IMG/VR virus record: IMGVR_UViG_3300020156_000056
Location: 1-39,952 of that record
Source of the DNA: a virus
Lineage: Duplodnaviria; Caudoviricetes
Direction: 5' to 3' (one strand)
DNA: 39,952 nt
Position numbers and translations under genes: made by a program. The notes beneath the pieces are model-generated. The model saw nothing but the letters and a program-made list of their open reading frames with translations, was not told where the DNA came from and did not search any database. Positions 4,446 through 39,952 of the stretch are shown here, piece by piece; positions within the stretch are counted from its first letter, which is position 1; each line of letters starts with the position of its first letter.

Positions 4446-4551
4446 TAACAGCGCTTGAAACGGTAGTAAGTTGGTACAGAATGCCCATATACCGCAATGG
4501 CGTCGCTAAGACTTCTTGAACATTCTCTTACTACCGATTGAGGCGCTGTTA
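4446..4551 (-). ncRNA. Hairpin cassette (second array, unit 1)
   Basis: Outer stem TAACAGCGC/GCGCTGTTA. Inner stem CGGTAGTAAG (4461-4470)/CTTACTACCG (4527-4536). 56-nt loop. Confidence 0.6.
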
Positions 4552-4570
4552 CTGGTTTATGTTTAACTGG

Positions 4571-4747
4571 TTATTCTTTTGGCATGTACTGGATTAAGTC
4601 ATCTAAAGCGACACGAACTCTTGTAGGCATTGCGCTTAATTCTTTTGGGTTTAAGTCACAGTAGCTTTTGAGCATCCGTAGCATATAGAGCGGCACCGGC
4701 ACCAAAGTAGTGTCAGTCGTAGGATAAACAGCCTTTAACTTTGGCAT
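4571..4747 (-). CDS. Small hypothetical protein (58 aa, MPKLKAVYP...)
   Basis: Read by hand. Strong AAAGGAGGAG RBS. Lies between hairpin cassettes. Confidence 0.7.
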   Translation of the reverse strand: MPKLKAVYPTTDTTLVPVPLYMLRMLKSYCDLNPKELSAMPTRVRVALDDLIQYMPKE

Positions 4748-4771
4748 ATACTCCTCCTTTTATTTAACTAT

Positions 4772-5137
4772 GGTTAATAAAGCGCTAGAAAACCAAGCGT
4801 AGGTGTCATTAGTGCCTAGCCTAGCAATGCGTTCTTACGGTTAGCATCGGGCAGTGACTTTAATGCTCTGAGGCCACATGCTGCCTACGCTTGGATATGT
4901 AGCGCTCTATTGTCTTGGTTAATAAGAGACAGCAGCGAAGGTACGCTACTTGATATAAGCTTTCGACGGCTATCTCGAGTTCTCATCTACCGGCCGCACG
5001 TTCACATACCCTCGATGTTGCCTCTTATTATCTTGGTTAATACAGGCCAGGTGAATGACGGTAGGCACACTCTGTTACAGCAAGCCCCTAACGAGTATGG
5101 ATGCTGGCATCCTACCGCCAATAATCTAGCCTGTATT
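4772..5137 (-). ncRNA. Three tandem hairpin cassettes (4772-4911, 4917-5030, 5035-5137)
   Basis: Each starts GGTTAATA on the + strand. Inner stems are CCAAGCGTAGG/CCTACGCTTGG, CGAAGGTA/TACCCTCG and TGACGGTAGG/CCTACCGCCA, with loops of 80, 63 and 45 nt. Most mismatches are G-U on the minus strand. Confidence 0.65.
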
Positions 5138-5289
5138 GTTTGCTTAAAAAGGAGCGCCAGTAGTTTCGTCAACTGGATAATCAGGCTCCTCGGGTTGAAC
5201 GTCGCCGATCATATCCGGTTCCAAAGTTTCGCCTTGTGGTGTGTGATGGCCGTCATACTCTAGGTCTGAACGCCAGTCGTTAGATTGTG

Positions 5290-6461: not shown

Positions 6462-6522
6462 GTGTCTCAGTCATCTTGAGTTGATATAGGCCAGGTTGCC
6501 AGCAATAAATGCTGGACTTTGA

Positions 6523-6711
6523 CTAGTTAAGCGAGACTAGTTCTTTGACTTCGCTTCTAATGGCAATAATCGCATCGGCGTGTTCACGTAATGCTATTGC
6601 CATATTAATTAGTGCTTCTTCTCCGAAGTTATCTAAGAAAAATAGTCTAATATCGTAAGCTGAATGATTCTCGCTCAAGAATTCTTGTATCTCTTGTCTT
6701 GAAGTTGCCAT
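6523..6711 (-). CDS. Small hypothetical protein enclosed by an inverted repeat
   Basis: ATG at 6711 with AAAGGAG RBS, 62 aa. Flanked by a 26-bp imperfect IR at 6483-6508 / 6723-6748. Confidence 0.7.
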   Translation of the reverse strand: MATSRQEIQEFLSENHSAYDIRLFFLDNFGEEALINMAIALREHADAIIAIRSEVKELVSLN

Positions 6712-6781
6712 GATTGTCTCCTTTATTAGTGACAATCTGGCCTATATCGTTTTGAGTAGTTTTAAAGCCTCTACTCACGGG

Positions 6782-7366
6782 CTAATACCAGTTGTTTTGG
6801 TAGTGAAATTGAAGTGCGACTGATGGTTTTCCGTAAACTCCGATGAGATATCCGATGCCCCATTTCATTTGTGTAACAGGGTTCGTTTGCCAATCTGAGC
6901 CAACGGTTGCCATCTTGCTTGCAGGCCATGATTGCGGGATACCACCAGCTCCACTATCAGGATTGATAGCCAAGTGGTTAAATCCAGACTCACATGACCA
7001 AAGCTCTAATAACGCTGTCCATTCACTGCCTGTCCATCCATGTTGTTTGGCTAGCTCTTGCCCTAGATTGGCATTGGCGACATTAATGGTCTTCCAATTG
7101 CCTTGTTTAGGTGAGCCACAAAAAACTCGGGATGGGTTTTCTGGTTCCGGCTTAACCGGTTCTATGGCCACTACAGGATTTACTGTCTGTAATGGCACCT
7201 GCACCGATTCCGCCGCCGTTGATTTTGCTTGCAGTATAAATACTTCCGCGTCAACGCTTTGATGTTGAACCGATGATTTGTCAAGGTTAGCCGGAGTTGC
7301 TTTCACGATGCCTATTGATGCTGCTATGAGTCCAATAAGAGTCGCTGTTGCGAAGATATATTTGAT
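6782..7366 (-). CDS. Secreted lytic-transglycosylase-like protein (aggregation-promoting-factor C-terminal type)
   Basis: LWSCESGFN...AGGIPQ...NPVTQMKWG..Y...YG...NNWY lysozyme-like signature. The frame is open upstream to an ATC at 7366, 7 nt after AGGAG, which adds a signal peptide. Confidence 0.8.
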   Translation of the reverse strand: MKYIFATATLIGLIAASIGIVKATPANLDKSSVQHQSVDAEVFILQAKSTAAESVQVPLQTVNPVVAIEPVKPEPENPSRVFCGSPKQGNWKTINVANANLGQELAKQHGWTGSEWTALLELWSCESGFNHLAINPDSGAGGIPQSWPASKMATVGSDWQTNPVTQMKWGIGYLIGVYGKPSVALQFHYQNNWY

Positions 7367-7511
7367 ATACCTACTCCTTTGTTAATGAGTTGCCTGAGCT
7401 ATTGAGGTACGCATCATTTGTTGCGCTACCGTCGGTTGTCAGGGTTCTCGACCTCAGTTTCATAAGGCTCTCACCTTATTCAGATTTCTGTATCTGACTG
7501 AAGCATCTTTC

Positions 7512-7535
7512 CTTGCGAAGAAAAGCCTGCCTCAG
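7512..7535. repeat. 24-bp perfect inverted repeat, left arm
   Basis: CTTGCGAAGAAAAGCCTGCCTCAG is the exact reverse complement of 9385-9408. Confidence 0.95.
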
Positions 7536-7541
7536 TTGAAT

Positions 7542-7566
7542 AAAAAAAACTGGCCGTTGTGACCAG
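7542..7566 (-). terminator. Rho-independent terminator downstream of the recombinase
   Basis: Minus strand CTGGTC-ACAAC-GGCCAG followed by T8. Confidence 0.7.
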
Positions 7567-7667
7567 GTTTCATGTATTACTAAACGTTAGGAGTTTGATA
7601 AATCTAGTAATTTGTGATTAAACAGTTGACTAATGCAACTCTTTACCCGGTCGATATTTTGTTTTCT

Positions 7668-8570
7668 TTAAGGTTCGTTCCAAAACTCTGAAGGTATCTT
7701 AGCACTAGTGGTATCGTTTGTCAATGGGTTTATTGTTTTAGGCGCATAGATGGCGTGTTGCTGTACCTTATGGGACTTCGACATGTGCAGGTAACGCATG
7801 GCGACGTTCACATTTACATGCCCCATCATCTTCATAATATCGTATATGTTTGCACCACTTTCCGCTAGATAGGTACCAAAGCCATGCCGTAAGGAATGGG
7901 GGTTAACATGTTTAATGCCAGCCTTTCTAGAGGCAAGTTTTAGACAAAGGCTCACAGCGCCGCTATGTATTCTCTGTCCGGTAGTAGAGCGGAATATATA
8001 CCCTGTAGTGATCTGCTCCATCATTAAGTAGAGTTGCAAGTAATCTGCCACTCCCTGGTCTATAACTACATCATCATGCTTACCGCCTTTACGGATAATA
8101 TGGATGGTATTTTCGGTGATGTCTTCAACGGTAATATTAATCAGTTCGTTAATGCGCATACCTGACGTAAACAGCAAAAGGACTATAAGCCGATCCCTTG
8201 AACGGGGTATGACTTCTAATAGTTTATTGACTTCTTCAGGGGTTACGTAGCGTATGACTACCTGTTCACGTTTAGTCTGTACGACATGCTCGCTTAATAC
8301 CTGAGTCCAACCGTTTCTGTTCTGGTAAAAGATAAAGCTGCGGATAGAGGATGAATAACGGGCTAAGGTGTTACGCTTTAACCCTTCCGCCTCAATCTGG
8401 ACAAAGAAAGCGTCTACTTTATCGAGGGTAAGCTCATCTAAAGTCTTAATGTGTGCTGTTTGGAAAAACTGTTCTAAATTAGAGCGATAGGTGGTGATGG
8501 TAGTAGGAGAAAAGCCTTTCACCTTACGGGCAAAAGTCAAATAGTCTTCAACTGCCTTACGTATCTCCAT
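7668..8570 (-). CDS. Tyrosine recombinase/integrase (XerC/D-like)
   Basis: N-terminal SAM-like domain. Catalytic residues R (SGMRINEL), K (RKGGK), HxxR (HSLRH), H (MGH) and Y (MRYLH). Start placed at ATG 8570 (GAGG RBS); the ORF is open to 8624. Confidence 0.93.
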   Translation of the reverse strand: MEIRKAVEDYLTFARKVKGFSPTTITTYRSNLEQFFQTAHIKTLDELTLDKVDAFFVQIEAEGLKRNTLARYSSSIRSFIFYQNRNGWTQVLSEHVVQTKREQVVIRYVTPEEVNKLLEVIPRSRDRLIVLLLFTSGMRINELINITVEDITENTIHIIRKGGKHDDVVIDQGVADYLQLYLMMEQITTGYIFRSTTGQRIHSGAVSLCLKLASRKAGIKHVNPHSLRHGFGTYLAESGANIYDIMKMMGHVNVNVAMRYLHMSKSHKVQQHAIYAPKTINPLTNDTTSAKIPSEFWNEP

Positions 8571-9057
8571 CTGTCCACCTCTTGACCTATCTACAGTAAT
8601 ACCATTTTGTTGTATATCTTGCATATAGCTTATGTGTGATATTCATCAAATCTTCATAAAGATAAATATCAAAGTCCTTCAGTAGTTGGGAATGGTTATG
8701 TTATTAAAAACACAAAGCAATAGCTCCCTGCCGGTATTAAGGAGGCAGGTTGATGAGCTATGACTTGGATACCACAAAGCAACGTCTCTAAGGCGCTTAG
8801 TCTTTTCCTGCCGTATTTGCATTCACAGGTACGCTTTTTTTAAGTCTAACCAAAGTTAAACAGGTGAACATTAAAACACCTCAAGGAGCACTATCGTAGA
8901 GTCTCTAGTCTAAGCTTTTCATGCCCACTACCGTAGTATCACTTCTATCTCATGCATTGAGCAGGTCAGGGGTTATTTTAGATACCCCAAAACTATCAAT
9001 ACACGAAGCAATAAACCCTCCGTAGATGTACCCATGCCTGAATACCAGGCTATGTGG

Positions 9058-9237
9058 TTACTTTGCTAATTTCTCTATTGCAAGGAGTCCTTTTGAAAGA
9101 GCCTCCTTTAACTGTTGTAACTGGAAATCTTTGTCAGTACCGATAGATTCGGGTTCGATTGTCTCATACGATTTATTGGCAATCTTAAGAGCGTTCGTGA
9201 GTGAACGCCGAACTTTTTCTAGGTCTTCTTTTTGCAT
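9058..9237 (-). CDS. Small helical protein enclosed by an inverted repeat
   Basis: GGAGG RBS, ATG 9237, 59 aa. Flanked by an IR at 9022-9046 / 9262-9287. Confidence 0.65.
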   Translation of the reverse strand: MQKEDLEKVRRSLTNALKIANKSYETIEPESIGTDKDFQLQQLKEALSKGLLAIEKLAK

Positions 9238-9348
9238 TGTGCCTCCATTATAAGCCATCTCGGTAATGCAGGCACAGGTACATCTACTGTCTACAGGGCT
9301 GTTATCGTACAGCCGGACGTAGTATCCAAGTTTTTAAGACTCGGGGTA

Positions 9349-9408
9349 TAAAAAAGACCCCAGAGTTATAGCTATCGCTATGCTCTGAGGCAGGCTTTTC
9401 TTCGCAAG
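9349..9408 (-). ncRNA. Putative ~60-nt small RNA or attenuated leader
   Basis: Starts just downstream of a sigma70-type promoter and folds into a stem followed by a T-run. Its first 24 nt (9408-9385) are the IR arm complementary to 7512-7535. Confidence 0.6.
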
Positions 9409-9414
9409 ACCTTC

Positions 9415-9443
9415 ATTGTATCACAACTAGCCGCATAAGGCAA
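9415..9443 (-). promoter_or_regulatory. Sigma70-type promoter
   Basis: TTGCCT, 17 bp spacer, TACAAT, with TG at the extended -10 position. Confidence 0.75.
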
Positions 9444-9566
9444 TATACAAAGGCAAAGGCCACCCGAAGTTTGTTGGAACGAACCTTTGGGGTGGCCTTC
9501 TGGATAGTCCGCCGAAGGGCTTCCTATCGTTAAGCTATTCTAGCATTTTAAGGCTAGTTTGTCGAG

Positions 9567-9719
9567 CTACAACGGGGCTGTATCTACGATCTCATCTTTG
9601 ATGGCTAAGAAGGCTGTAAGTCCTTCTAAGGCGATCTGTGAGGCGATACGCTGCACTTCCGCGTCTTCTAACGCTTCCTGTAACATGATCTCAAATTCTT
9701 GGGCGTTTGGCTTATCCAT
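9567..9719 (-). CDS. Small acidic protein (50 aa, MDKPNAQEFE...)
   Basis: Read by hand. Open frame, co-oriented, weak RBS. Confidence 0.5.
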   Translation of the reverse strand: MDKPNAQEFEIMLQEALEDAEVQRIASQIALEGLTAFLAIKDEIVDTAPL

Positions 9720-22356: not shown

Positions 22357-22701
22357 TCAATCTTGCTTAATCAAAAAGGCAAAGACTCGTTTACGGCTTT
22401 CGTGGTCGTCGTATGCCCGTGCTGAGTTTGCGGCCTTGATAAACCGCTCCTTACCAACCACCTTTAAACGTTTAATGAACCACAGTCTGTACTTATCCAC
22501 AATCAGGTCTGAAGCCCAATCAATTAAACTATCTTGTTCACTAATAGCAATTGCTATTGTTGTTTTAGTTTCTGTTTTTCTATTGCCATAGCTATTGTAA
22601 TTGCTATTGGTCTTCTGGCTTAAGAGGTCGCCTACGCTCTCCATAAACAAATTCCAATCTAGACCCTCGAACATATTGTCGGGGCTTGGTTTCTTTGACA
22701 T
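22357..22701 (-). CDS. Hypothetical protein with internal palindromic repeats (possible replication-origin protein)
   Basis: 114 aa, AAAGGA RBS. Internal GCTATTG repeats and a 16-bp palindrome. Confidence 0.7.
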   Translation of the reverse strand: MSKKPSPDNMFEGLDWNLFMESVGDLLSQKTNSNYNSYGNRKTETKTTIAIAISEQDSLIDWASDLIVDKYRLWFIKRLKVVGKERFIKAANSARAYDDHESRKRVFAFLIKQD

Positions 22702-22988: not shown

Positions 22989-23198
22989 CTCTTGAGGACT
23001 GGTGGTCCTCGTATGTTTACTGCCATTCGTGGCTTTCAACACACCTACAAGTTTCACCAAAGATAATACTATATTGGATCAGGCATTGCAAGTACTGACC
23101 ACGTAAACCTCTCTTAACTTATTGCTAGAGGATGTGGAGTGTCTCTATGGTGTTTTTATTTTTGTTGTTAAGAGAGGCATAGATAGTTAGTAGTTCTA

Positions 23199-38901: not shown

Positions 38902-39198
38902 CTATTCATGGTTTTCTAACTCCTTTATGCGGCCTCCAACAGAACCGAGAAGCACACCGTCTTTATCACGCCTGGTGGCTACAGATATGTAGCTTAATTC
39001 ATCAATCCGTGCTTCCCGCTCCACCCGCTTCATCTCGGCTTCAAAGAGAGCTACAGTTTGGTCAACTTCTTCGCTATAATCTGTTCCCTCAAGAACTTCG
39101 CCTGTTTCATCTCTGGTTAATATATGATCTGGCTCACCGTCCGGACTTTCTTCAAGTCCCCATATTTCAACAAGCTTTTCGCGTAGTTCCTTATTCAT
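38902..39198 (-). CDS. Hypothetical protein
   Basis: 98 aa, AAGGAG RBS, REARIDEL motif. Confidence 0.75.
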   Translation of the reverse strand: MNKELREKLVEIWGLEESPDGEPDHILTRDETGEVLEGTDYSEEVDQTVALFEAEMKRVEREARIDELSYISVATRRDKDGVLLGSVGGRIKELENHE

Positions 39199-39237
39199 AA
39201 AATCTCCTTAACTTGTAGGATTATGTTAATTGGTTAT

Positions 39238-39349
39238 GGTTAAAACACACGGAGCTGGCAGTGACCTTGCAAGTTATCGAAGTCGCTTAATCATACTGAA
39301 TGTGCACATTATGATTGCTGCTTCGCCCTGCCAGCTCTATATGTTCTAC
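39238..39349 (-). ncRNA. Hairpin cassette B (present only in the right-end copy)
   Basis: GGTTAAAACACA leader. Inner stem GAGCTGGCAG (39252-39261)/CTGCCAGCTC (39328-39337) with a 66-nt loop. TATGTTC trailer. Confidence 0.6.
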
Positions 39350-39352
39350 TGT

Positions 39353-39460
39353 GGTTAAAACACAGGTAAGTGATGGTAAGCCACCAGGCCTTTCACCTGA
39401 TTGACACACGAAGGTTCAGCTCGGTACTTTGACCACACTTACCATCACAGAGCTATGTTC
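39353..39460 (-). ncRNA. Hairpin cassette A' (same stems as cassette A, different loop)
   Basis: GTGATGGTAAG (39370-39380)/CTTACCATCAC (39438-39448) identical to cassette A, with an unrelated 57-nt loop. Confidence 0.65.
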
Positions 39461-39617
39461 TAGCGATTTCATCGCCACATACACAGCGAAGTTTAATGGC
39501 TACCAAGTTATGCCACTTAATTTGTCCTTTTGCGCCATCACCAGCATAGTGTGTGTCTCTATTTGTGAACTTCCATTCAACAACTATCGTGTGTTCGTGA
39601 ACGTGTTTTTTGTGCAT
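39453..39617 (-). CDS. Small protein (54 aa, MHKKHVHEH...RCVCGDEIART) present only in the right-end copy
   Basis: Read by hand. GAAAGGA RBS. The stop codon lies inside the outer stem of cassette A'. Confidence 0.65.
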   Translation of the reverse strand: MHKKHVHEHTIVVEWKFTNRDTHYAGDGAKGQIKWHNLVAIKLRCVCGDEIART

Positions 39618-39828
39618 ACCATTCCTTTCGTTTATCCGTTACACTTCAAAATCTGTTTAACAGAAGTGAATGTTACAGTTGGGCTATTTGTTAATTACAG
39701 TTGTCTATCCTCAACCGTGAAGGCTATCCAAACAAGGCATTGCCGGAGTTGTGGTCACGCAACCCTCGAAAGAGCTGACAATGCCTTATTGAGTATTCGG
39801 CACTCTCCGACAATGTGATCCTTGTTCT

Positions 39829-39908
39829 TGGGAGTGACAGGACTCGAACCTGCGCTAGGACTACCCTTTCGGGATTCGGTTCCAGCTCCTCATTACGTCA
39901 ACACTCCC
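39829..39908 (-). ncRNA. Second copy of the tRNA-like RNA
   Basis: Identical to 550-629 except for one T-stem change (G-C to G-U) that keeps pairing. Confidence 0.62.
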
Positions 39909-39952
39909 GTGGCTGGGCTTCGTTTTACGACTGAAGCCCCAAGCGTCGTCAC

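Follow-up and report, generated by a model that had tools for sequence, protein, structure and literature searches.

The stretch of DNA analysed here (the window, 39,952 nt) holds a phage genome of ~39 kb with overlapping ends, on which every recognised gene lies on the minus strand. Gene matches are to a terminase, a major head protein, a holin, an endolysin and an integrase, and the genome is circularly permuted. The overlapping ends (1-673 and 38997-39952) differ in their middle, where conserved end blocks (1-253, 426-474 and 486-673) flank differing inserts with a 29-bp repeat and its partial complement; they look like two alleles of a variable non-coding region. Imperfect inverted repeats of 22-39 bp enclosing 45-222 nt occur at 4446-5137, 6483-6748, 9022-9287 and 23090-23195, two of them enclosing a whole small ORF (6523-6735 and 9058-9237), and are possibly RNase III processing stems of the early transcript; a similar stem was seen by eye after the first gene in L060. 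Cultured phages gave no DNA match to the window.

The region around the integrase, read in the direction of transcription, contains the following features.

9537..9565, minus strand: predicted promoter P1, TCGACA-17-TAGAAT with a TG extension (pattern only)
9445..9530, minus strand: predicted accessory RNA1, with a GC stem (9499-9456) and a loop region (9487-9474) complementary to 7683-7670 (fold z -3.6)
9415..9443, minus strand: predicted promoter P2 of RNA2, TTGCCT-17-TACAAT with a TG extension
9349..9408, minus strand: predicted small antisense RNA2 of ~60 nt, with a 7-nt free 5' end, a terminator stem and a U run (fold z -3.8)
9385..9408, minus strand: the 24-nt pairing stretch (seed, right arm) at the 5' end of RNA2 (sequence)
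9058..9237, minus strand: 59-aa ORF between RNA2 and integrase, of no family in PHROGs or Pfam
7668..8570, minus strand: tyrosine integrase of 300 aa (PHROGs/Pfam match)
7696..7724, minus strand: predicted promoter P3, TTGACA-17-TAAGAT with a TG extension, the putative source of the leader RNA in free phage (pattern)
7670..7683, minus strand: predicted target site (14 nt) for the RNA1 loop, close to the start of the P3 transcript (duplex of -28.5 kcal/mol with flanks)
7567..7669, no strand: probable attP region, placed from relatives
7541..7566, minus strand: intrinsic terminator T1, stem 7566-7550, U8 (sequence and fold)
7497..7536, minus strand: target hairpin H1, whose 5' side and loop (7535-7512) are the left arm (fold)
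7367..7496, minus strand: remaining structured leader, including a ribosome-binding site (fold)
6782..7366, minus strand: first gene of the operon, a secreted transglycosylase-like protein of 194 aa with an apparent ATC start (signal-peptide-like start, by eye)

The perfect 24-bp inverted repeat described in an earlier note on this DNA (7512-7535 and 9385-9408) is present in the window, and it does flank a tyrosine recombinase, the integrase on the minus strand at 8570-7668 (PF00589, E 4.7e-32). Those two copies of the arm are the only ones in the window when up to three mismatches are allowed. None of 100 shuffled sequences contains a 24-bp repeat, and the longest perfect inverted repeat in each of 30 simulated genomes was 14-20 bp, none reaching 24 bp. 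No exact 18-mer of the arm occurs in IMG/VR, and a single-protein scan found no close relative of the integrase.

The right arm begins a segment, 9408-9349, that folds as anticipated into a 5' toehold of seven unpaired bases followed by a terminator hairpin and a run of U (z -3.8). The toehold is complementary to the loop of H1. The pattern TTGCCT-17-TACAAT at 9443-9415 is likewise present, and has a TG extension besides, but its description as a strong promoter is not backed by its score; promoter-like matches in the region are no commoner than chance (9 found versus 13.1 expected). P2 is called a promoter because its position is conserved, relatives having an equivalent in the same place 4-10 nt ahead of the pairing stretch, and not because of the match score. 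The 59-aa ORF that follows RNA2 has a best Atlas score of 0.83, a lead only. An ORF right behind the small RNA is homologous between the relatives G004 and G207 (37%, E 5e-16; L036 12422-12727 and L055 3606-4007); it has no Pfam family and could encode another protein of the switch or of replication. The window ORF at 22357-22701 was considered as its counterpart and set aside, the likeness being unsupported.

The left arm lies, as had been claimed, directly past a terminator (7566-7550) and within a structured leader: the fold of 7570-7460 on the minus strand (z -4.7) comprises T1, H1 and two further stems. H1 starts 9 nt past the terminator that opens the lytic operon and has no U run after it. 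The apparent ATC start of the first gene, at 7364-7366 and 7 nt past AAAGGAG, yields a signal-peptide-like N-terminus, and relatives use ATG. From 7600 round the circle to 23200 the minus strand has no promoter match of at least 10/12. Since the genome is circularly permuted, the operon guarded by H1 is therefore probably longer than 7.5 kb, and T1 and H1 would likely gate the early, packaging and head genes.

Two elements of the region had been overlooked. One is the third promoter, P3 (7724-7696), which would produce the target RNA; relatives likewise carry a TTGACA promoter at the end of the integrase. The other is a second complementary pair, 14 bp long, between 7670-7683 and 9474-9487, which would join RNA1 to the P3 transcript. 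Pairing of RNA1 exceeds chance in 3 of 12 cases (14, 17 and 15 nt in G000, G004 and G436, respectively), the partner being the P3 transcript in the window and the integrase start in G004 and G436. In the other nine cases the pairing is at chance level (at most 11 nt) and so is not general; for this reason RNA1 is rated an accessory element.

The arrangement recurs in relatives that share little sequence with the window. In G004, whose portal protein is about 40% and integrase 25% identical, the order is the same and the sequence unrelated: lysis genes, hairpin, promoter, small RNA, ORF, integrase, promoter, half tRNA, terminator and complementary hairpin. G230 and G207 have the order of G004. 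Alignment of a tail gene gave 80 viral loci, or 84 with four known cases, of which 39 have an integrase, 13 of those without enough flank. Among the 26 integrase loci with flank, 11 contain a duplex of 23-38 nt scoring 40-54, against shuffled maxima of at most 30. Whole records were then scanned by testing each promoter-like site for a compact duplex with a target starting just past a terminator. Under strict criteria, which were fixed only after positives were known, this layout of RNA and target was found in 15 of the 32 records of the integrase set and in 0 of 11 complete integrase-less relatives, with a background of one match in four shuffles of all 43 records. The strict scan missed G004 and G436, which a looser scan recovered; with three records found by motif (G415, G427 and G428) and one by eye (G447) they make six further positives. 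In total 21 of 32 records are positive, each with its own, self-matching sequence, although several are near-duplicates and the distinct seeds number ~15. The 11 records without a pair are nine in which the leader end is missing from the record, L147 (a partial locus followed by apparent host DNA) and G423, which is without an integrase. The layout thus goes with integrase-bearing genomes.

Ten host genomes were examined over the stretches retrieved from them. There, G242, G325, G340 and G207 are positive, G329 and G256 have an integrase and no pair, and the other four have no or only a partial integrase. The first genome-wide duplex scans were noisy, giving 386 duplexes, 56 with a terminator, against 193 and 15 in shuffled sequence. 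The 29 loci with relatives of the transglycosylase were mostly other contexts with no comparable repeat. No leader motif common to all families emerged, the alignments being poor (48% and 60% mean identity) and only subfamily motifs being visible. The 11 integrase-less records, in G433-G450, are complete relatives by tail gene, with no integrase and no RNA/target pair found, and are probably lytic members of the family. At G207:C1, about 495000-545000 (L054, L055 and L258), there are two copies of the tail, lysis, small RNA and integrase genes at a distance of 22.4 kb, through partial tandem duplication or as an assembly effect. A weak tmRNA match lies near the G436 switch (L195 1276-1399, E 0.04). 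In L066 (G124:C13), a 287-bp repeat pair at 4940-5226 and 7348-7632 is 88% alike, with differences mostly at A in one copy, and looks like the TR/VR of a diversity-generating retroelement.

The attachment site could be located in relatives. G405 is the integrated form of G004, and the two sequences diverge right past the half tRNA; G242 has a 78-bp tRNA-Gly att duplication, with the terminators and the target downstream of the host tRNA. In both cases (G004/G405 and G242) att lies between P3 and the terminator. The att core of the G418/G426/G207 type is not a tRNA. A search for attB in 401 genomes of the host class gave only short matches in unrelated contexts.

The earlier note had proposed a trans-acting antisense RNA of ~60 nt acting on the leader, and this proposal is now well supported, since arm complementarity is kept with compensatory change in relatives. 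Such changes in both arms were found as follows. The G207 and G451 alleles differ by three compensated pairs and keep two G·U pairs in both, and in the G415, G424 and G242 alleles RNA and target change together. When every RNA was paired with every target, the cognate pairing was strongest in 13 of 13 rows, at -29.5 to -48.6, whereas the non-cognate ones in this matrix reached -28.2 at most. Discrimination between targets is not predicted for every allele, because in one additional modelled pairing the G415 RNA binds the G424 target (-34.4) as well as its own (-34.0). Taken together, the sequence evidence points to a real, conserved, family-wide RNA switch.

A second allele was met in run X1. 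It has five changes inside the 24-nt seed, at positions that are unpaired, at bulge edges or tolerant of wobble in the RNA2 fold, while 9004-9390 is unchanged, the -10 box is retained and both partners of the RNA1 stem pair 9463/9492 are changed. Its target was not recovered and is absent at 85% likeness. Over window positions 8650-9567, runs X1 and X2 contain a second element that matches exactly at 9004-9390 and departs from the window at 8702-9004, within the RNA2 seed and past 9567; it would be a co-occurring relative with a different predicted specificity.

The host is likely a member of the Saccharibacteria, because relatives of two phage proteins sit there. The best relatives of the transglycosylase in genomes are in three Saccharibacteria MAGs (3 of 6 loci), and of 401 genomes of the class that contains Saccharibacteria, 10 have a match to the portal protein, seven of them with E < 1e-95. 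In these genomes, some of them incomplete MAGs, Rho passed the cut-off in 0 of 61 from the host class and in 0 of 5 bearing prophages, and Hfq in 0 of the same 5. RNase III, the RNase J family and RNase Y are each present in 5 of 5 prophage-bearing genomes.

As the earlier note had stated, no CI-like repressor is recognisable in the genome: no repressor family was found among 58 ORFs searched with PHROGs or 38 window ORFs searched with Pfam. The same holds for the switch in 21 records, in which no CI-like repressor of the known families lies at the switch, although one of unknown fold could have escaped the search. HTH_3 occurs in 1 of the 21, about 8 kb from that phage's switch, and peptidase S24 in none.

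RNA2 is probably a trans-acting antisense repressor of the lytic operon, standing in for a repressor protein. It would be made constitutively beside the integrase, pair in trans with H1 and silence the operon; that the regulation is repression, and that RNase III is its effector, we infer. P2 would make RNA2 in lysogens. Any polymerase reading through T1 would make H1, starting at P3 in the free phage and, once the phage is integrated, at a promoter of the host, which in several relatives is that of a tRNA. RNA2 would then contact the loop of H1 with its unpaired 5' end and unzip the hairpin into a 24-bp duplex with no need of Hfq. RNase III may cut this duplex, with decay by RNase J and RNase Y next, or the loss of H1 may end the support that the leader gives to elongation. 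When the target arm was blocked in silico, no new terminator formed, and the ribosome-binding site, which in eight plausible calls lies 146-497 nt downstream, was not consistently occluded. Each pair of seed and target would constitute one immunity type. Integration would sever P3 from the operon, so that integration and RNA would act jointly, and RNA1 would be an accessory damper, aimed at the P3 transcript here and at the integrase start in two relatives. A bolder form of this proposal is advanced only tentatively, as falling somewhat short of probable: that a family of temperate Saccharibacteria phages does without a repressor protein, a single small RNA with a re-programmable 5' address of 20-29 bases being the sole repressor of lysogeny and superinfection immunity, acting on a leader hairpin by toehold strand displacement, independently of Hfq and Rho, and coupled to an integration that unplugs the lytic promoter.

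The opposite sign of regulation is unlikely, but it is the best placed of the alternatives. Here RNA2 would open H1, freeing a processing or antitermination element, and so activate the operon, and lysogeny would come about through the removal of P3 by integration. The geometry of toehold and hairpin fits activation by strand displacement, and att does part P3 from the operon. H1 extends back over at least 10 bases of U tract and linker in 10 of 14 folds, and such a long stem could be inhibitory, although in most single cases the extension is not significant against shuffled flanks. H1 is without a U run, however, and hence offers no terminator to open. In a prophage that lies behind a host tRNA promoter, an activator made constitutively would be a hazard, and no other repressor was found.

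More doubtful still is the converse arrangement, in which the leader is the regulator: it would bind nascent RNA2 and block its terminator, and transcription would continue into the small ORF and the integrase. The seed does overlap the 5' side of the RNA2 terminator stem in the window, G207, G452 and G448, where feedback of this sort could be real. In G004, G436, G407 and G430, however, and nearly so in G406, a separate terminator hairpin lies past the seed and the pairing is still conserved, which disposes of the earlier suggestion that the leader RNA anti-terminates towards the recombinase as a general function.

It is very improbable that the arms are DNA operators for a protein, or that RNA2 forms an R-loop on the DNA just past T1. 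One copy at a start of transcription and the other at the entrance of an operon are positions at which operators occur, but the pairings in relatives, like RNA helices in general, contain G·U pairs, bulges and mismatches, the orientation of the DNA tracks the sense of transcription, and no co-varying DNA-binding protein was found.

The remaining alternative of the earlier note, that the arms are the recombination sites of an invertible 1.9-kb segment, draws on the fact that in this single genome a tyrosine recombinase is flanked by a perfect 24-bp inverted repeat, and is rejected, with hardly any probability left to it: in G406, G407 and G430 the DNA arms are direct repeats, the small RNA and its target lying on opposite strands with a divergent integrase and the RNAs remaining complementary, and integration has placed the arms at opposite ends of the chromosomal prophages G242, G325 and G340, 31-32 kb from each other. 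The arms are imperfect in many relatives, and the two share no internal dyad. Both arms are covered, in reference orientation, by contigs of runs X1 and X2, and contigs of X1-X3 contain no strand-change joint, weak evidence on orientation given that contigs drop rare variants and X1 may be the source sample. RNA pairing is preferred to inversion because of the direct-repeat relatives, the split prophage arms, the paired allele changes, the cognate matrix, the contigs and the X1 allele.

One study reports 120 Saccharibacteria prophages, and the word 'repressor' is absent from its main text (PMC10746230). The literature searched, whose coverage leaves out most subscription journals, contained no account of how lysogeny is maintained in phages of CPR bacteria. 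The pairs described above offer a concrete, family-wide candidate for a lysogeny switch, with ~15 natural pairs of RNA and target, most of them orthogonal by prediction, that span soil, aquatic-type and oral/gut-type phages; they could serve as natural orthogonal RNA switches. RNA-only immunity has a precedent in the satellite P4, and in P1 an RNA provides a second layer of immunity. If the present reading is true, a whole family of phages relies on RNA immunity in hosts without detected Rho or Hfq, and a different effector step is needed.

The likeness to the CI RNA of P4 and the C4 RNA of P1, pointed out in the earlier note, stands as regards the proposed mode of action, but RNA2 is not a member of either group, having no Rfam match, a stand-alone gene and a different target. 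No Rfam model, those of C4 included, reached its gathering score in the window, and nothing meaningful appeared at E<=10 in 7300-9600 or at E<=1 in nine loci. In P4 termination involves Rho, whereas Rho was detected in none of the 61 host-class genomes here. CI maintains lysogeny by antisense pairing to the untranslated leader of the lytic operon. It arises by processing of the very leader transcript that it controls, in which it lies between the targets seqA and seqC (PMC4825925). The systems would be alike in that an RNA rather than a protein acts on the leader of a lytic operon, and both have two target sites in one leader, here one for each of two predicted RNAs. They differ in that RNA2 is predicted to be a stand-alone primary transcript equipped with a promoter and a terminator, 1.9 kb away from the leader and more than 30 kb once integrated, in that it has a single 5' pairing stretch of 20-29 nt, and in that its target follows an intrinsic terminator and att.

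The c4 RNA of P1 works alongside a protein repressor, C1. According to PMC12197685, c4 of P1 and P7 is a phage antisense RNA whose sequence variants give heteroimmunity through matched changes of RNA and target, and it blocks translation of the antirepressor message near its ribosome-binding site. Matched variants of RNA and target occur between the relatives here as well, with two families of compensated alleles and a cognate-specific matrix. The target differs, being a hairpin (7536-7497) about 130-150 nt or more before the first start; the first gene is transglycosylase-like, and no antirepressor was matched among the 58 ORFs of the window. The genes for lambda OOP and P22 sar lie opposite those of their targets, which makes complementarity automatic, whereas RNA2 and its target are separate loci on the same strand and must co-evolve. 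Lambda OOP and P22 sar are described in PMC12197685 as short phage antisense RNAs in the decision between lysis and lysogeny, OOP acting via RNase III. A parallel to the position of att is the integration-dependent immunity of mycobacteriophages, in which attP lies inside the control region and integration rewires the switch (PMC3694055). Integration would rewire the switch here as well; in the mycobacteriophages the components are an integrase, a protein repressor and Cro, whereas here att parts a promoter from its operon and the repressor-like part would be an RNA.
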